From Clostridia bacterium (GTDB lineage: Bacteria > Bacillota > Clostridia > Christensenellales > Aristaeellaceae), in contig JAKSQG010000001.1 of assembly GCA_024404275.1 (NCBI GenBank), positions 3,851-36,839 on the forward strand: 32,989 nt of DNA, given 5' to 3'. Under the pieces are notes generated by a model that was not told the origin of the DNA, ran no database searches, and worked only from the letters and a program-made list of their open reading frames with translations. The translations under genes were made by a program, and so were the position numbers. Numbering within the stretch: the first letter of the stretch is position 1; the number at the start of each line of letters is the position of its first letter. This document shows, in pieces, positions 8,826-24,760 of this stretch.

Positions 8826-9836
8826 TTATTCATGATTGGGGGCTGCCAGCGTCTGCCCAGGCAGGTAGCAGCAGGGAACGGTCTCGATCTCGGGGAAGGT
8901 CACTTCCGGGTGTTCCACCAACTCGATCAGTTTTTGGGCTGCCGCTGCACCGATGGCTTCGGTATCCTGACGGATGGTGGTAAGCGCCGGGCGGGTTCGC
9001 TGCAGCAGCGGCACACCGTCGTAACCGACAATGGAGATATCCTACGGAATGCGCAGACCTTTTTCACGTATGGCTTCAATGCCGCCCAGTGCGGCGTAGT
9101 CGTCCGGCATGAGGATGCAGGTGGGCGGTTCGGGAAGCTCCAGCATTTTTCTTACCTGATGACGGGTGCGAGCCGGGTTGTGATACTCGCTTTCGATCAG
9201 ATAACCATCGGGAATGTCCAAACCGGCATCTATCATCGCCTTGCGGTAGCACTTTACGCGGGCTGTGGAGACTGATTTTTCCGCGCCGTGGACATAGCCG
9301 ATCTTTTTGTGACCCATTGCAAGAATGTTCTGCATCAGCAGCTCCATACCCTGACGGTTGTCAGAACGGACGCAGCTGCGTTCCTGAAACAGATAGTCAA
9401 CGGTGACCAGCGGAATCTCGCTGCGTAAAAGCTCCTGTACCTGCGGATCTTCAAAGTGGCAGCATACGATGCATACACCGTCAAATTTCCGGCTCCGGCA
9501 ATGCTCCAGGATGGTACTGCCTGTGCTTGTTCTTTGGGAAATGAAGGTGATGTCATATCCGCGGGCTTCAGCCCCCATGCGGAACGCCTGCAGGATGGGA
9601 GAAAAGTAGCTGTGCGTCAAACCGCTTTCGGAGTCATCCGCATAGAGAACGCCAAGCGTGTAGGTTTTGCCGCTTCTGAGTCCCCGCGCAGCAGCATTGG
9701 GGTTATATCCCAGCTGAGCGGCCTTTTCCTTAACAATCCTGCGGGTCTCTTCATTCACGTCCGAGTAACCATTCAGGGCTTTGCTGACCGTGGATACCGA
9801 TAATCCGCAGGCAGCGGATAGTTCCTTGAGTGTCAT
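8826..9836 (-). CDS. LacI/GalR-family transcriptional regulator containing one in-frame TAG (9042-9044)
   Basis: Track pieces 9042..9893 and 8826..9014 are in the same frame. Direct reading gives ...AIREKGLRIP-TAG-DISIVGYDGVPLLQRTRPALTTIRQD... N-terminal HTH MTLKELSAACGLSVSTVSKALNG starts at ATG 9836. Read-through length is 336 codons, normal for the family. Stop TAA. Confidence 0.85.
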
Positions 9837-9856
9837 CTGAACTCCGCTTCCGTTTC

Positions 9857-9868
9857 TAAATCGTTTTC
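9857..9868. promoter_or_regulatory. Imperfect LacI-type operator upstream of the lacI-family gene
   Basis: Minus-strand GAAAACGATTTA matches 10 of 12 positions of the perfect palindrome at 10001-10012. It lies 9 nt downstream of the putative -10 box. Confidence 0.4.
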
Positions 9869-9877
9869 GTTGAACAT

Positions 9878-9906
9878 AATATAACACACTCAAAATCAGA
9901 ATGCAA
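9878..9906 (-). promoter_or_regulatory. Putative sigma-A promoter of the lacI/ABC operon
   Basis: Minus strand: TTGCAT (9906-9901), 17-nt spacer, TATATT (9883-9878). Confidence 0.45.
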
Positions 9907-14181: not shown

Positions 14182-14254
14182 GACAGGAGAATCGGCATTC
14201 TTTGATGCGGAGATACCAAGTCCGCAGTTCGTAGAACACGAAACCGCGTTCTAC

Positions 14255-14263: not shown

Positions 14264-14291
14264 GGTTTTACAACAAACGGAGGGAAAGAAC

Positions 14292-15035
14292 ATGCTTAAC
14301 AATCAGCTTTGCATTTTTGGCGATTCCATTTATTGCGGTGTCACCTTTGACGAAACCTTTGGACGCTATACCCTTTGCCGCAATACCTTTGATAAGAAAC
14401 TTCGTTCCTTCGGCGTGACCGTCCGCAACAACGCCCGTCCCGGCTGCACCACCGACATCGCGCTGAATCATCTGGATGAAGCGCGTGTACTTCCCGGAGC
14501 TGTTTGCCTCATTTCCTTTGGCGGCAATGATTCTGATCTTGAGTGGGAAAAGGTCGCAGCCGATCCAGACCATTATCACGAGGGAAAAGTCTCCCTGGCG
14601 CAGTTCAAGGAAAACATACGGGAACTGATTCTTTTTGCAAGGGAGAAACAGATGCAGCCGGTCGTGTGCACACCCCTTCCCGTGGCAGCGGAACGCTATT
14701 TTGAAACTTTCTCCAAAGGACTTGACCGCAGTGCCCTGATGCGCTATCTGCATAACACCGAATACATCTATCGTTGGCAGGAGCGTTACGCGCTGGGAGC
14801 ACAGCAGGTTGCCTGCAGCATGAATTGTGAAGTGTTTGACCTGCGCAGTATCTTTCTTTACCAACGGGACTTTTCAGCGCTCATGTGCCGGGACGGCATC
14901 CACCCGAGCGCAGCCGGATATACGCTGATGACGCAAGCCTTCTGCAGTTTCTGGGGAGTCGAAAGCGCATCTGATACACAGTCACAGCGTGTGTTTCATC
15001 CCTTCTTCAACCCCGCATCCGCCTTCTCCTTCTGA
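14292..15035 (+). CDS. SGNH/GDSL-family hydrolase
   Basis: 247 aa with block I FGDSI, block III GGND and block V DGIHP. Stop TGA. Confidence 0.8.
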   Translation: MLNNQLCIFGDSIYCGVTFDETFGRYTLCRNTFDKKLRSFGVTVRNNARPGCTTDIALNHLDEARVLPGAVCLISFGGNDSDLEWEKVAADPDHYHEGKVSLAQFKENIRELILFAREKQMQPVVCTPLPVAAERYFETFSKGLDRSALMRYLHNTEYIYRWQERYALGAQQVACSMNCEVFDLRSIFLYQRDFSALMCRDGIHPSAAGYTLMTQAFCSFWGVESASDTQSQRVFHPFFNPASAFSF

Positions 15036-17806: not shown

Positions 17807-18541
17807 TCACCGGGGCAGATAACTGGCCTCGCCCGGCACAGTCGCCTCAATGGTGCCGCCCTGAAGCCCTCTGGCGCGAAGTTCCATCAGTACAGCCCGC
17901 ACCGTACCCAGCTTGCCCCGAAGGGACTGCGCGTTGCCGATCCGGATGGTATGGCCATCCCGGGTGGTCAATGTCAGGCTTTCTGTGCGGGACGCGTCCA
18001 TTGAGGCAATTTCCGTGACCCAACCCTGCGCCCGAAGCTCTTCCACCACGGCTGTTACGCTGTCAAACTGCCCTTCTTCCATGCAGACAACCCGGGAATG
18101 CTCCCTGATATCACGGATGTTGAGCCCGTTCACATAGATGCAGCCGTTATCCTCATCCAGGACATTGCTGACAGAAAGCACCACGCCGGAGGAGGAGGTG
18201 ACAAACCGCCGTCCCCCACCCCCTTCCTGGATGTTCAAAGCCGGTGTCTGCTCCTGTACATACAGGACGACTGTATCCGGCCAGATCTTTTCCAGGCTTT
18301 GATAGACATAGTGATAATCGCTGTTGATGCCCTTTCGGATGGTGTTCTCATCGACATCAAAATAGCTCATGCCTGTTTTGAGACCGCTGAGGTTATACAC
18401 CTTAAGCAGATTTTCATCACTGACACCGGCCAGCAGCACATGCTGAATGACCGCCACTTTTTCGTGTATGACAAAGGCGGCTGAAAGCAGCAATACTGCC
18501 GCCACAGCCGCGATCATGATGGTTTTCATTCCCTTTCGCAT
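17807..18541 (-). CDS. ftsQ: Cell division protein FtsQ/DivIB (short form)
   Basis: 244 aa with a single N-terminal TM helix followed by a POTRA-like region (VYNLSGLKTGMSYFDVDENTIRKGI...VVLYVQEQTP). dcw synteny. RBS GGAGGG. Stop TGA. Confidence 0.8.
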   Translation of the reverse strand: MRKGMKTIMIAAVAAVLLLSAAFVIHEKVAVIQHVLLAGVSDENLLKVYNLSGLKTGMSYFDVDENTIRKGINSDYHYVYQSLEKIWPDTVVLYVQEQTPALNIQEGGGGRRFVTSSSGVVLSVSNVLDEDNGCIYVNGLNIRDIREHSRVVCMEEGQFDSVTAVVEELRAQGWVTEIASMDASRTESLTLTTRDGHTIRIGNAQSLRGKLGTVRAVLMELRARGLQGGTIEATVPGEASYLPR

Positions 18542-18556
18542 CGGGATCCCTCCGCT

Positions 18557-19933
18557 TTATTCCAGGGCATTGACCAATTGTTTAAAGATTCTGCCGCGCT
18601 GTTCATAATCGCTGAACTGATCAAAGGAAGCACACGCCGGGGATAAAAGCACATTTCCGCCGTTCACCGCCAGCTTTCTGCAGAGCTGCACGGTTTCGGG
18701 ATAATTTTCAGCGTGATAGAGCGCCGTGTATCCCGCCTTGACCAGTGAAGCCTCGATCTGCGGAGCGGTCGCGCCGCACAGCACGATCTTGTCAATCATA
18801 CCGCTCTTCATGATCTCCTCGGACAGCGCGTCGAAGGAAACATGCTTGTCCGATCCGCCGAGAATCAGCACCGTGGGCACGCGCATGGTCTGCACTGCCT
18901 TGATGGTGCTGTCCACATTGGTGCCCTTGCTGTCATTGTACCACTTGACGCCGTCCAGCTCACGCACAAACTCAATGCGATGCTCCACACCCTTGAAGGT
19001 CTTGAGCGCCATACGGATCACCGGTGCCGGTACGCCCGCGGCAAAAGCCATCATGGCCCCCGCCAGCGCGTTCTACAGGTTATGCGGTCCGGGGATATAG
19101 ATTTCTTCCGTTGCACAGATGAGGGTTTCCTCGCTCTTCCAGCGGATGAACATTTTTCCATCATGGACAAAAGCGCCGTTCTCCACTTCGTGCTTGGAAC
19201 TGAACCAGGCAACCTGGGAAGGAATCTTCTCCGCCATCGCGCGGCACCAGCTGTCCTCATAGTTGAGCACCGCCGTATCCTTTTCGGTCTGACGATCAAA
19301 AATGTGCTGCTTCACAGCGGCATAATTGTCCATCGTGTAATGACGGTTCAGATGGTCCTCCGTCACGTTCAGCACAGCCGCCACCGTGGGATGGAAGGTA
19401 TCCGTGGTTTCCAGCTGAAAGCTGGATACCTCCGCCACCAGCACATCCTCCGGCTTGCTCAGCATAGCCGCTGCCGACATCGGATAACCGATGTTGCCGG
19501 CCACATAAGCGATCTTGCCGAAGCCGCGGAAGATCTCCCCCAGCAGCGACACCGTGGTGGTCTTGCCGTTGGTGCCGGTCAGCGCCACCAGCGTTCCCTC
19601 CGCCAGCTGCGAAGCAACCTCGAGCTCGCCGGTCACGGAAATGCCCTTCGCCTTTGCCGCAAGTACAATGGGAGCATCAATGGCGATGCCGGGGCTGATG
19701 AGCAGCACATCGGTCTTGTCCAGCAGTTCTTCCGGCTTCTGACCGAGATACCATTCGCAGGGCAGGGCCTTGAGCGTACGGATGCTCTCCCCCAGCTGTT
19801 CTTCCGTCTTGCGGTCATTCAGCATGGGAACAGCGCCAAAGCGGCACAACAGTTCTGCCACAGCGACACCACTGCGCGCCATGCCGATGATCAGCACCCT
19901 TTTCCCTTGCCAATACTGTTTCAAATCGCTCAT
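18557..19933 (-). CDS. murD: UDP-N-acetylmuramoylalanine--D-glutamate ligase MurD containing one in-frame TAG (19073-19075)
   Basis: Track pieces 19073..19951 and 18557..19054 are in the same frame. Direct reading gives ...EEIYIPGPHNL-TAG-NALAGAMMAFAAGVPAPVIRMALKTFKGVEHRIEF... P-loop GTNGKTTT is present. Start ATG 19933 follows GGAGGATAAG. Read-through gives 458 codons. Stop TAA. Confidence 0.9.
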
Positions 19934-19947
19934 CTTATCCTCCGGAA

Positions 19948-20973
19948 TCAAAACCAGGCCAGCACGCTCAGCACGGCAATAACGCTGAGTACCAGCGTAA
20001 CCGCCGCGTACATCATCACAATCTGATTCTCATTCATGCCGCTCATCTCAAAGTGATGATGGATGGGCGTCATCTTGAAAATGCGCTTGCCATGGGTCAG
20101 CTTGTAGTAGGTTCTTTGCATGATGACAGAAACAGAGCTCATCACGCAGGTAAAGCAGATCAGCAGCAGCAGGAATTCCAACCGCAGCAGCACAGCAATG
20201 CCAACCATGACGCCGCCGATGAACATGCTGCCGGTATCGCCCATAAAAATCTTGGCAGGATGGCGGTTGAATTTGAGGAATCCCAGACACGCGCCCGTCA
20301 GTGCAAAAGCCACAGCGGCACTGCATTCACCCGCGTTGAGCAGGCTGCTTCCCGCGGATGCCATCAGCAAGCCCATTGCACCGAATGCAATCATGCCCAC
20401 CGCGGTCACGCTGGACAGAATGCCGTCAATGCCATCCTGCAGGTTGGCACTATTGGTCATGAACAGCACTGTCAAGGTAAGCAGCGGGATATAGAACACA
20501 CCCAGATTCCAGGTACTGTGGGTAAAGGGCAGAATGACCTCGCTGCCGAGCGTAAAATACGCCCAAACAGAGAACAACAGACCCACGATCAACTGACCCG
20601 CAATCTTTTGCTTCGGCTTCAGTCCCTCGTGATTCTTTTTGACATCCTTGATATAGTCATCGGTAAAGCCCACAGCCATGGAACCGATGGCCACAAACAG
20701 CAGCGCCCACAGGGTATTCTGCAGCGACCAGAAGGGTACCGCAGCACCTTTTTTACGCATGAGGCACACCACCAGTACGGTAATCATCACCGTGACAGGG
20801 CCTGTGACCACACCGCCCATGTTGGGCGTGCCCTTTTTGTTGAGGTGGCTCTGCGGTCCCAGTTCGTACATGGTCTGGCCGAATTTGAGGGCACGCAGTT
20901 TTTTGATACACACCGGCATCAGAAGCATCATCAGCGCAAAGCTCATTACCACGGCTTCAGCGGCATACAACAT
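19948..20973 (-). CDS. mraY: Phospho-N-acetylmuramoyl-pentapeptide transferase MraY
   Basis: 341 aa polytopic membrane protein with motifs GTPNMGG, DDYIKD, NLQDGIDG and PIHHHFE. RBS AAGGAG. Stop TGA. Confidence 0.93.
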   Translation of the reverse strand: MLYAAEAVVMSFALMMLLMPVCIKKLRALKFGQTMYELGPQSHLNKKGTPNMGGVVTGPVTVMITVLVVCLMRKKGAAVPFWSLQNTLWALLFVAIGSMAVGFTDDYIKDVKKNHEGLKPKQKIAGQLIVGLLFSVWAYFTLGSEVILPFTHSTWNLGVFYIPLLTLTVLFMTNSANLQDGIDGILSSVTAVGMIAFGAMGLLMASAGSSLLNAGECSAAVAFALTGACLGFLKFNRHPAKIFMGDTGSMFIGGVMVGIAVLLRLEFLLLLICFTCVMSSVSVIMQRTYYKLTHGKRIFKMTPIHHHFEMSGMNENQIVMMYAAVTLVLSVIAVLSVLAWF

Positions 20974-20985
20974 AACAGCAGCTCC

Positions 20986-22440
20986 TTATTGCTTGATTTC
21001 CTGCAAAAGTTCTTTTACGATCTGCTTTTCGTCAAAGGGATATTTCTTTCCACAGATCTCCTGATAGGTTTCGTGTCCTTTGCCCGCCAGAATGACGATA
21101 TCATTGGGCTGCGCGGTTTCCAGCGCGTGACGTATGGCGGCACGGCGGTTTTCAATCACCGTATATGGCCCCGTCGTCTGCTTGATTCCCTCTTCAATGC
21201 TCTGAAGAATCGCAAAGGGATCCTCACTGCGGGGATTGTCGCTGGTCAGCACACAGTAATCGGCCATTCTGCCGCCGATTTCGCCCATGATGGGGCGTTT
21301 ACCATGGTCGCGGTCACCGCCGCAGCCAAACACAGCAATGACCCGTCCTTTTGCAAACTGACGGACCGCTTTCAGGATATTTTCCAGCGCATCGGGAGAA
21401 TGTGAATAATCAAGCAGCACCTTGTAGGGAGTATCGGTGTCCAGCATCTACGCGCGTCCGGGAACTGCCCTGACCGCCTCCAGACCCGCGGCAATGGCTT
21501 CCAACCCGACGCCAAGTGCGGCCGCGGCCGAAGCCGCGGTCAGCGCGTTATACACATTAAAAATGCCGGTCATGTGCATATGCACATCACACTCACCAAG
21601 CTCGCCCATATGCAAGCAGAAGGCTACACCCTGCTCACTGATCTCAATATCACGCGCATAGCAATCCGCATTTGCGCGGATACCGAAAGTATGATAGGGC
21701 AGCACCGTATCACGGAGAATCTGCGCCGTGGTCTCCTCATCGGCATTCAGCACAGCATTGCGTGCATAAAAAGGCGTGAAGAAGATCTTCTTCGCCTCAA
21801 AATACTGCTCCATGGAACCGAAATAATCCAGATGATCCTGCGACAGATTGGTATAGCAGGCTACATCATACACCACGCCGTCCACACGGTGCATGGCAGT
21901 GGCATGAGCGGAAACCTCCATCACAACAGCATCCACCTGCTCATCCGCCATGCGGCGCAACAGGGACTGCAGCTCATCCGCCTCGGGCGTTGTCATATTG
22001 CCATGAATGGGACGATCGCCGATCATGTTGCCCGTCGTACCGATCAGGCCGCACTTCATACCGGCATGTTCCAGAATGGATTTGATCAGATAACTGGTCG
22101 TCGTTTTGCCCTTGGTGCCGGTGATGCCGACCATTTTCATACTGCGGGACGGATGACCGTACAACGCGGCACAGATGGGACCAAAGGCTTCACGCATATT
22201 TTTTACGCGGATCTGCGGCACATCGAGCGGCAGAAAGCGTTCCACTGCCAACGCCACAGCGCCGTTGGTCACTGCCTGCGCAGCAAAATCATGCGCATCA
22301 AAACGAGCGCCGGAGATACAGCAGAACAAGCCGTTTTCATTCTTCACACGGCTGTCCATCACCGGCAGTTTTACATCGGTATCGCCCTTCCGTTCCAGAA
22401 TCAGGGAACCGCATTCCTTTTCCAGATCGCTGAGTTTCAT
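20986..22440 (-). CDS. murE: UDP-N-acetylmuramoyl-tripeptide synthetase MurE containing one in-frame TAG (21448-21450)
   Basis: Track pieces 21448..22440 and 20986..21447 abut in the same frame: ...LEAVRAVPGRA-TAG-MLDTDTPYKVLLDYSHSPDALENIL... P-loop GITGTKGKTTT is present. Read-through gives 484 codons. Stop TAA. Confidence 0.92.
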
Positions 22441-22474
22441 GTCGGACCTCTTTCCGTCTGTTTGCGCACAAGCA

Positions 22475-22510
22475 GGCTGATGAATCTGCCTTATCTCGTG
22501 TTCATCAGCC
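22475..22510 (-). other. Stem-loop in the murE leader
   Basis: GGCTGATGAA (22475-22484) / TTCATCAGCC (22501-22510), a 10-bp perfect stem with a 16-nt loop, about 35 nt upstream of the murE ATG. Confidence 0.4.
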
Positions 22511-22521
22511 GCTTGATTCAG

Positions 22522-22556
22522 AAAAAAACAGCCGACCGGTGCCTTGCAGGCACCGG
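22522..22556 (-). terminator. Intrinsic terminator after the ftsL-like gene
   Basis: CCGGTGCC/GGCACCGG (22536-22556) followed on the minus strand by TCGGCTGTTTTTTT. Confidence 0.7.
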
Positions 22557-22571
22557 AAGGCGCATCAATGA

Positions 22572-23069
22572 TTACTTTGAAGCCTGCATGCTGGCGCCGT
22601 TCAGTGTGGTGCCGGGCCGTGTCGCAGGAGCATAGATATAATTGACTTCCATGGCATCCGCCTTGGTCATACCAAGATTCACAGCAAGCTTATCGATCAC
22701 ATTTTCCGCCGTTGCGTCGGCAATCTGCTGCTTCATGCCGTTGATCTGCCTCTACGCCGATTCTACCTCGGCATACAATGTACGGCCATCCTGAAGCAGA
22801 TGACCCTTTTTTTGCACCGCCCCGGCATAGAACATCAGCATTACCACTGCCAGCAGTCCTGCCGCAATCAAAAGCAGACGCAGCGGAACACGCCGTGCCT
22901 CGGCGGGACGGTTGGGCGCGACATAGGTGCTGCGCTCATCCATATCGCAGCACACATCGCCGCCCGGCATATAGACGTTTGAGCGTATGGTCATTTTTCT
23001 GCGGTCGGCGTTCCAGTAGCCTGCCTTTGTGTATGTATGCGTGCTGCCGGCCAGAGACATATGAATCAT
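22572..23069 (-). CDS. ftsL: FtsL/DivIC-like septum formation protein containing one in-frame TAG (22752-22754)
   Basis: Track ORF 22752..23069 ends at TAG. The same frame continues for 59 codons to TAA 22572-22574: ...TLYAEVESA-TAG-RQINGMKQQIADATAENVIDKLAVNLGMTKADAMEVNYIYAP... One TM helix (LRLLLIAAGLLAVVMLMFYAG), a coiled coil and the ...LGM... tail typical of FtsL. Start could be ATG 23069 or 23060. Confidence 0.7.
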
Positions 23070-23084
23070 ACCCTTTCTTTATTA

Positions 23085-23603
23085 TTATCTGGCGGCGATC
23101 TCCGCCTCAAAACTCAAAATATCGGGAGTTTCTTCCAGGATCTTTTCTTCTTCAAGGTCGGCTTCTTCCTGCTTCTTGATGCAGATATGAGAGCCGCAGC
23201 CCGATACATCAACGTCCCGGGCATCCTGCAAAAAGCGGGTGCGCAGTTTCTGCGGCAGCAGGATACGTCCCTGACCGTCGCACTCACAATCCTCGTAGGT
23301 ATACTTTGTAAAAAGATTGATGATTTTGATCATCCGCATATCCTTCTCCGCCAGCTCCAGCAGAGAGCAGTAGTACAGCTCCCATTCGCGGCGGGGATAT
23401 ACGGCAATGGCCTTGAAATCAGGCGTCATGCAGATGCAGAAGGAATCTCCCAAAGCATTTCTGAAAGGCGCGGGAACAATTAATCTTCCCTTTGCATCCA
23501 ATCCGTGCTGGTAGTCGCCGCGGAAGCCGCCACGCAGCAGATGGGCGTATTTCTGCAGAAGAGCATTCTGCCGCTCGCCCAGCTGTTCCAGCTTTTCGCT
23601 CAC
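23085..23603 (-). CDS. mraZ: Transcriptional regulator MraZ (with ~30-aa N-terminal extension)
   Basis: GDYQHGLDAKGRLIVPAPFR and the second half-repeat CDGQGRILLPQKLR. The nearest start upstream of the first motif is GTG 23603 after AAAGGTGGTGG (alternative GTG 23636). Ends with a triple TAA. Confidence 0.8.
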   Translation of the reverse strand: MSEKLEQLGERQNALLQKYAHLLRGGFRGDYQHGLDAKGRLIVPAPFRNALGDSFCICMTPDFKAIAVYPRREWELYYCSLLELAEKDMRMIKIINLFTKYTYEDCECDGQGRILLPQKLRTRFLQDARDVDVSGCGSHICIKKQEEADLEEEKILEETPDILSFEAEIAAR

Positions 23604-23664
23604 ACGCCCACCACCTTTCCGGTTTAAATCCACCACTTGGCTCTACTTTTTGGGATTTGCAACC

Positions 23665-24040: not shown

Positions 24041-24760
24041 TCAAATCTGGTTCTGTTCCCCACTTTCGGGTTCATCGATTCTCTTCAGCCTGAATCCAAG
24101 GGCGTCGCAAGACACCAGATGATAGCGAACCCCGCCTTGCACGCCGCTGAAGCCCGTGCGGATGGACGCGCCATGAAGGTGTCCATACACGCAATCGCGC
24201 ACACCATAACTGCTCAGCAGTTCGGAGACCTCTGTCGCTTCTCCATTTTCCGCCACCGGCGGATAATGAGTCATGGCTACCAGCGGTGCATCGGCATCCA
24301 GCGATCTGGCTTTGTCCAGCGACATTTTGAGCCGCATCAGTTCGCGCCGGTAGAGCCGCACATTTTCGACGTCCTTCTCACTGGACGGAAGCGTCCAGCC
24401 GCGGGAGCCGCAGAACAGCACGCCATTCAGTCTGACAGCGTCATTCTGTACCACGACCATCCCCGGTCCGACAATCTACCGTACCCTTGTCAGCGAACTC
24501 CACCAGTAGTCATGGTTGCCGCGAAGCATCACTTTCGTGCCGGGCAGCTCTGCAATCTCTTCCAGATCGTTCCGGGCATGCTCAAGCTGCATCGCCCAGC
24601 TGATATCGCCGGGAATCAGCACAACATCTTCTCCGGTCACTCGTTCGCGCCAGTCTGTGCGGATCTTGTCCCAGTGCCCTTCCCAGTGGGAACCGAACAC
24701 ATCCATCGGTTTATCGTCTCCCCCGGGGAGATGCAAGTCGCCAATGGCATAGATACTCAT
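24041..24760 (-). CDS. Metallophosphoesterase (calcineurin-like) containing one in-frame TAG (24476-24478)
   Basis: Track pieces 24476..24760 and 24041..24460 are in the same frame: ...GNHDYWWSSLTRVR-TAG-IVGPGMVVVQNDAVRLNGVLFCGSRGW... Motifs GDLHL, GDISW, GNHDYW and GHLH span both pieces. Read-through gives 239 codons. Stop TGA. Confidence 0.85.

Follow-up and report, generated by a model that had tools for sequence, protein, structure and literature searches.

According to Shulgina and Eddy (2021), every known stop-codon change in bacteria concerns UGA. A 2026 report on the UGA-to-Trp change in Actinomycetota discusses UGA alone, and a 2026 preprint based on a screen of 2.7 million assemblies lists known as well as new bacterial reassignments, none of them for TAG. 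The translation-table tool of GTDB (October 2026) covers tables 4, 11 and 25, and the sole UAG case mentioned with it is the archaeal UAG-to-Pyl code. Table 4 (UGA to Trp) is used by Mycoplasmatales, some endosymbionts and Eggerthellaceae (PMC13462651), table 25 (UGA to Gly) by Absconditabacteria and Gracilibacteria; in these reassignments a cognate tRNA goes together with the loss of the matching release factor, and the change is confined to a clade. A report of bacterial UAG-to-Glu was not found in the literature searched (open papers and preprints).

UAG as a sense codon is known from other systems. In the eukaryotic UAR-to-Glu codes (table 30, peritrich ciliates; table 31, Blastocrithidia; PMC12153298) UAG is read by a tRNA-Glu with changed anticodon, UAA is reassigned too, and eRF1 is altered, not lost. 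Gut phages with code 15 (crAss-like, Lak) read in-frame TAG as Gln by means of a tRNA(CUA). For archaea, UAG-to-Pyl with UAG as sense throughout the genome has been reported (Kivenson et al. 2025, as cited in PMC13695967), a code that needs PylS, tRNA-Pyl and Pyl biosynthesis. Finally, in engineered E. coli such as the one-stop-codon strain (PMC11903333) deletion of prfA together with a CUA tRNA frees UAG, these strains having been built in the laboratory after removal of all TAG stops.

The locus described here lies in a window of 32,989 nucleotides (the whole stretch of DNA that was analysed), which belongs to a metagenome-assembled genome (MAG) of an uncultured Clostridia bacterium, 1.57 Mb in 173 contigs, 75% complete, called the source genome below. 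An FtsL-like gene in this window is interrupted by an in-frame TAG. Judged from sequence comparison, this TAG is very probably a sense codon in a genome-wide UAG-to-Glu code, with RF1 lost and a Glu-type tRNA(CUA) gained. Like the UGA reassignments the proposed code combines a cognate tRNA with the loss of a release factor within one clade, but it concerns UAG and would insert Glu, and RF1 has been lost instead of RF2. In contrast to recoded genomes that are AT-rich or strongly reduced, the G+C content is 54% and the sister species reaches about 2.1 Mb at 81% completeness. An anticodon-changed tRNA of the Glu type is shared with the eukaryotic codes, whereas UAA stays a stop. In-frame TAG, a tRNA(CUA) and an apparent gut habitat are shared with the code-15 phages, from which the bacterial chromosome and the Glu-type tRNA set the present case apart. 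Compared to the archaeal code, PylS was not found in the two genomes and the tRNA belongs to the Glu family. Compared to the engineered strains, the state has evolved, in a lineage in which TAG was already a rare stop.

The FtsL-like gene and its product

The FtsL-like gene occupies positions 22572..23069 on the minus strand (165 codons from ATG 23069, plus the TAA stop). Read with table 11, ATG 23069 starts an ORF of only 105 codons (22752..23069) with the end ...LYAEVESA-TAG. Beyond this TAG (22754-22752; codon 106) the same frame stays open for 59 codons, starting RQINGMKQQIADATAENVIDKLAVNLGMTKADAMEVNYIYAP... (also given as RQINGMKQQIADATAENVIDKLAVNLGMTKADAMEVNYIYAPATRPG...), until it reaches the TAA at 22572..22574, the real stop of the gene, which is conserved as TAA in the sister species. 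An earlier note on this DNA had described the ORF stop at AEVESA-TAG and the 59 open codons, and the minus-strand reading bears this out; the note, however, treated the TAG as a feature of a single gene, whereas this codon is one case of a change in how TAG is read throughout the genome. Chance does not account for the open frame, since the TAG-ending ORFs of this genome run on for a median of 131 more codons. As the homologues begin with MSLAR..., their alignment suggests ATG 23060 as the true start, which would give a product of 162 aa.

The sister species ('Clostridia bacterium ... SGB_3710') has a TAG at the identical codon. While this TAG is kept, codons 104, 105 and 107 differ between the two species, and the 59 codons beyond it show six synonymous and four non-synonymous changes, no indel and no stop. 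The truncated reading has already entered the databases: a word-indexed protein search with the read-through product returned as its sole match a 102-aa truncated protein of the sister MAG.

All 12 homologues from non-recoded genomes of the genus are stop-free, 168-173 aa long and align across the TAG to residues 4-158. They do not end where the 105-aa product ends, an outcome that would have spoken for the truncated protein as the complete one. Eight of the 16 invariant columns of the 12-homologue alignment lie past the TAG (G133, M134, I145, A147, P148, T150, R151 and P152). The claim that the functional extracytoplasmic part lies beyond the TAG is thereby supported, and the LGM tail expected there is present as G133-M134, followed by the conserved IYAP-TRP tail. 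At the TAG itself the relatives have Q in six, E in four, D in one and R in one case. Since Q outnumbers E, this alignment column cannot by itself tell Glu from Gln.

FtsL and DivIC of B. subtilis and E. coli (TIGR02209, PF04999, PF04977) are bitopic, N-in proteins with a TM helix, a coiled coil and an LGM tail. The product of the read-through frame has the same architecture: an N-terminal tail is followed by a single N-in TM helix (about residues 61-85) that runs into a coiled coil, and the chain closes with the short conserved LGM...IYAP-TRP region. An AlphaFold2 model calculated on the family alignment contains one single helix, 63-131, passing through residue 106, with pLDDT values of 79-93 over residues 61-120; no structure is predicted for the two ends, as would be expected if the protein folds together with its partners. 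The hydrophobic core positions 91, 98, 102, 105, 109, 112 and 116 follow the same heptad register before and after the TAG, so that the coiled coil is unbroken and residue 106 is located at position e. Position e of a heptad is usually polar or charged. The heptad region had been assigned to the part after the TAG; it does continue there, but it begins upstream, within the helix that runs through.

In profile searches the read-through product matched DivIC (E = 0.018), ftsL_broad (E = 0.036; 79 of 85 profile positions) and FtsL_Actino (E = 0.042), whereas neither half of the protein alone matched an FtsL or DivIC profile. The proposed comparison of read-through and truncated protein thus turned out in favour of the former. 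Across the family, FtsL_Actino was matched by 11 of 14 members (best E = 2.6e-7), ftsL_broad and DivIC by nine of 14 each. The scores of the read-through product, 14-15 bits, stay under the curated cut-offs of 29-55 bits (TIGR02209, NF053549, PF04977, PF04999). They support a distant kinship to FtsL/DivIC, not a curated membership, and since all scores seen for the protein are under these cut-offs we call it FtsL-like. Compared to known FtsL and DivIC proteins it is very divergent and carries an N-terminal tail of about 60 aa. Because the protein diverges fast, 60 genomes taken from across the order yielded almost nothing, and the homologues came from a search at genus level; a profile search of PDB sequences gave generic coiled-coil matches only. 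Taken together, the gene is most likely intact and encodes a full-length FtsL-like protein of 162-165 aa with Glu106.

Downstream of the TAA a terminator-like hairpin, CCGGUGCCU-GCA-AGGCACCGG, with spacer and U7 is found at 22522..22556 on the minus strand. The G+C-rich stem of 9 bp (hairpin 22556-22536) begins 15 nt past the TAA, and a 7-nt spacer separates it from the U7 run at 22528-22522. With an MFE of -27.9 kcal/mol the fold has z = -2.8, and one of 200 shuffled sequences folds equally well. The sister species retains the hairpin with changes in the loop. A strict consensus terminator scan did not report it because of the 7-nt spacer. An intrinsic terminator shortly after the TAA, noted earlier at a distance of 16 nt, is accordingly present at 15 nt, and transcription would probably pause or end there ahead of murE.

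TAG codons in the window and in the genome

The gene order in the window is mraZ, FtsL-like gene, murE, mraY, murD, POTRA (FtsQ-type) gene, ftsA, ftsZ. With mraZ (23085..23636, minus; MraZ E = 1.4e-19) directly upstream at the head of the dcw cluster and murE downstream, the FtsL-like gene has the position in the cluster that is expected of ftsL, that is, after mraZ and before class B PBP and murE. The usual dcw order is modified, since rsmH is missing between mraZ and ftsL and no PBP gene comes next in this species. In the control congener introduced below (segment G008:C7:55776-59249) the order is mraZ, ftsL-like, class B PBP, murE, the PBP gene encoding PBP_dimer and transpeptidase domains. 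Several more congeners resemble this arrangement, judged by spacing. In the source genome, the sister species and two further genomes (G015, G016) murE follows about 130 nt after ftsL (window 22441-22571). The sole PBP of that type found in the 75%-complete source assembly is located on contig C111 and is 31% identical. Between murD and ftsA an ORF of 244 aa (17807-18541, minus) contains a weak FtsQ-type POTRA domain (E = 7e-5); its product is probably the DivIB/FtsQ partner of the FtsL-like protein.

The TAGs of the window were first seen on a stop-to-stop map and then counted inside called genes. Five genes, all on the minus strand and including the FtsL-like gene, contain an in-frame TAG, and in all four others a Pfam domain spans it. 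In murE (20986..22440) the TAG at 21448-21450, codon 331, lies inside the Mur_ligase_C domain and aligns to the invariant E of the VPGRAE motif in 10 of 10 non-recoded relatives; the sister species has TAG here as well. The gene for a murD-type ligase (18557..19951) has its TAG at 19073-19075, inside Mur_ligase_M, where the sister species has TAG and the control congener GAA (Glu). In a metallophosphoesterase gene (24041..24760) the TAG at 24476-24478 is spanned by the Metallophos domain (residues 1-197) and corresponds to GAG in both the sister species and the control congener. The last one, at 9042-9044, is found in a gene for a LacI-family regulator (8826..9893), spanned by Peripla_BP_3, with GAG in the sister species and CAG in the control congener. 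TAA or TGA is the stop of each of the 30 gene-like frames in the window. Two more TAGs (23643-23645 and 14232-14234) are in frame upstream of likely starts, namely those of mraZ and of a plus-strand ORF at 14268-15035. They are probably non-coding and part of untranslated leaders; the one ahead of mraZ is conserved as TAG in the sister species.

For the genome as a whole, ORFs were called under the standard code and the sequence after each stop was rated with a codon-usage score obtained by iterative self-training. Coding-like sequence goes on in frame after 83% of the 180 TAG-ending ORFs, compared to 9% for TGA and 13% for TAA. Beyond a TAG, the next TAA or TGA is a median of 131 codons away, and beyond TGA and TAA stops 16 and 30 codons, respectively. 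The same procedure was applied to an RF1-positive congener as control (G008, 726 kb). There, 25 of 627 ORFs have TAG as their stop, followed by coding-like sequence in only 8% of the cases; TAG in this genome is a rare but true stop. Orthologous gene ends point in the same direction. Only one of 263 reaches a TAG first in the source genome, and the frame there runs on for 70 codons; six of eight control genes that end in TAG end in TGA in the source genome. Since coding continues past TAG and orthologous ends avoid it, TAG no longer acts as a terminator in the source genome. TAA remains a stop, with 639 ORF ends. Only 46% of the TAG codons are common to the source genome and the sister species.

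Release factor, tRNA and amino acid

RF1, the product of prfA, is the only bacterial factor known to read UAG. Of 17 genomes of the genus, 13 contain an RF1 that passes the cut-off of the family model, and in two more the gene is cut at contig ends. In the source genome and the sister species, alone among the 17, RF1 was not found, and these are the same two genomes that carry the murE TAG. As absence from MAGs is weak evidence, the locus was checked by synteny. The control congener has prfA between a lepA-like gene and a topoisomerase gene. On contig C79 of the source genome the stop of the lepA-like gene and the start of the topoisomerase gene are 20 nt apart, with no prfA between, and the sister species is colinear with this junction at 93% identity. 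Judged from the common junction, prfA was deleted in the common ancestor of both. The sole PCRF-domain gene in the source assembly carries the SPF motif and is RF2.

ARAGORN found one tRNA with the anticodon CUA in the source genome (G000:C117:5836-5911), with all four stems fully paired. The sister species has a 100% identical copy, whereas the flanks are diverged or have lost synteny; in the 15 other genomes of the genus this tRNA was not found. A comparison to 300 genomes of the order gave 76-nt tRNA-Glu(CUC) for every one of the 29 best matches; these align gap-free to the tRNA(CUA) and have in common with it the D-arm, a variable region of 4 nt and the G1-U72 pair. The anticodon loop reads CUCUAAA in the tRNA(CUA) and CUCUCAC in tRNA-Glu(CUC). 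As the tRNA-Glu(CUC) of the genus is still present in the sister species, beside tRNA-Gln(CUG), the tRNA(CUA) is an extra paralogue. Its identity to the genus tRNA-Glu(CUC) is 62-64%, compared to up to 74% for tRNA-Glu(CUC) of other families, and its sequence may go back to an old duplication or to a transfer.

The tRNA(CUA) gene stands alone. In a comparison of G000:C117:4336-7411 with contig C50 of the sister species it is syntenic on one side, with a gene for a small membrane protein; on the other side synteny breaks about 60 nt beyond the tRNA end, where the source genome has a large gene. An exact copy was not found in JGI metagenomes. A phage origin found no support, as no Glu-type CUA tRNA was found in IMG/VR. 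Four short JGI contigs (Ga0102944_1022418, Ga0194116_10087771, Ga0209918_1045771 and Ga0102944_1024379) contain other CUA tRNAs with a Glu-type D-arm, three of the four without encoded CCA. They are not close to the tRNA described here and may stand for Glu-type amber suppressors, or reassignments, that arose independently in other organisms.

The amino acid was addressed by two tallies. In orthologues of the source genome and the control congener (Test A), 28 TAG columns align to E in 15 cases, Q in three, D in three and single others. Of the TAG columns 54% align to E; the corresponding shares of GAG and GAA are 65% and 59%. With log-likelihoods of -53 (Glu) and -78 (Gln), Glu is favoured by 25 units. 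Codon pairs of the source genome and the sister species (Test B; 106,509 codons) comprise 32 TAG/TAG, 40 TAG/GAG, 11 TAG/GAA, 12 TAG/CAG and three TAG/AAG, with at most two for each remaining TAG pair, and the log-likelihoods of -136 (Glu) and -186 (Gln) differ by 50 units, again in favour of Glu. TAG/GAG, a transversion, is more than three times commoner than TAG/CAG, a transition (40 vs 12), the pattern expected of synonymous exchange between TAG and GAG. TAG/CAG nevertheless makes up 15% of the TAG differences between the two species, against 3% expected for a pure Glu codon. This excess may be explained by the distance of a single transition between TAG and CAG. On the basis of both tallies TAG as Glu is well supported, with a minor share of Gln possible.

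Concerning the charging enzymes, the sister species has a single-copy GluRS, which is why duplication of GluRS was rejected as a charging mechanism. GlnRS was found, GatB was not. Glu on the tRNA(CUA) would therefore not be turned into Gln, and a non-discriminating GluRS with GatCAB transamidation was rejected on the same grounds. The tRNA(CUA) has a weak G1-U72 pair, G73 and A36. G1-U72 and G73 favour GlnRS in E. coli, the GlnRS of which readily mischarges amber suppressors; GluRS enzymes often read C36. The GluRS of the sister species (G006:C71; L127:316-1776, minus) shows ten conservative changes at positions that are invariant in 12 congeners. Five of these cluster at 380-411 in the C-terminal part (E380D, M381L, A401S, E403D and V411I). 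From the sequence, the changes could be an adaptation to the A36 tRNA or plain drift.

Proposed code and alternative explanations

These observations are best accounted for by a natural bacterial code with UAG = glutamate, which probably, though with slightly less certainty than for the single codon in the FtsL-like gene, evolved within a small group of gut Clostridia of ordinary G+C content in three steps. These would be the gain of an extra tRNA of the Glu(CUC) family with the anticodon CUA, a clean deletion of prfA and the replacement of the few ancestral TAG stops. TAG would now spread by synonymous exchange with GAG. Among the ORF ends of the non-recoded control congener TAG is already rare (4%); such rarity would have lowered the cost of losing RF1 and is in keeping with a codon-capture-like route. 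We infer that the single GluRS charges the tRNA(CUA) with glutamate. The ribosome would insert Glu at codon 106 of the FtsL-like gene and go on to the TAA, and the product would be a bitopic FtsL-like divisome protein with Glu106 at the solvent-exposed e position of a continuous coiled coil.

Glutamine, or a mixture of Glu and Gln, would be read at TAG if GlnRS charged the tRNA(CUA). The genus does possess GlnRS, the FtsL column is Q in six of 12 relatives, 12 TAG/CAG pairs occur between the two species, and G1-U72 and G73 are features that favour GlnRS in E. coli. Against this, both tallies favour Glu by 25 and 50 lnL units, the TAG/GAG transversion pairs outnumber the TAG/CAG transition pairs with 40 to 12, and the TAGs of murE, murD and the phosphoesterase gene align to Glu. 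The body of the tRNA, moreover, is that of the tRNA-Glu(CUC) family, throughout which the G1-U72 pair occurs. We therefore regard this reading as improbable, albeit the strongest of the alternatives. Code 15 of phages, in which TAG is likewise Gln, was rejected, since the window carries a dcw cluster of bacterial type and the tallies favour Glu over Gln. Pyrrolysine comes to mind because ARAGORN labels any CUA tRNA 'Pyl' and because Pyl-using Firmicutes exist, as does a genome-wide UAG-to-Pyl code reported for archaea (as cited in PMC13695967). It is hardly conceivable here: the best PylS match in the two genomes, in neither of which the enzyme was found, has 24 bits against a cut-off of 178, the tRNA(CUA) has a normal D-loop and the architecture of a tRNA-Glu, and TAG aligns to Glu.

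Two further explanations keep TAG as a stop or question the data. If TAG still terminated and a suppressor tRNA gave partial read-through, the gene would yield mostly the 105-aa FtsL and little of the full-length form. Natural amber suppressor tRNAs do exist, and RF1 might be hidden in the unassembled 19-25% of the two MAGs. However, prfA is deleted at the syntenic locus in both, no orthologous gene clearly ends at TAG (about 263 compared), and murE and murD, essential and single-copy, carry TAG at invariant positions of their catalytic domains. With a TAG-GAG flux that resembles synonymous turnover in addition, partial read-through appears very unlikely. Pseudogenes, errors of assembly or sequencing, or contaminating DNA of a recoded phage or eukaryote could also place TAGs inside genes, and contamination is a known cause of false calls of stop reassignment in MAGs (Shulgina and Eddy 2021; Melnykov 2026 preprint). 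The TAG codon is, however, common to two independent MAGs, the genes of the window form a bacterial dcw cluster whose products are about 73% identical to those of congeners, the signal of TAG is genome-wide, and the frame is not disrupted after the FtsL TAG, which leaves next to no room for an artefact.

If the proposed UAG-to-Glu code is correct, it would be the first UAG reassignment and the first change from stop to Glu in a bacterial chromosome, and the lineage would be a living counterpart of the engineered amber-free strains. It would offer a test case for the codon-capture and ambiguous-intermediate models at ordinary G+C, and possibly a natural tRNA(CUA)/GluRS pair. If annotated with table 11, each genome of this lineage has roughly 180 genes truncated or split. 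With TAG as a sense codon, the cell-division gene is no longer seemingly broken, and the paradox disappears.
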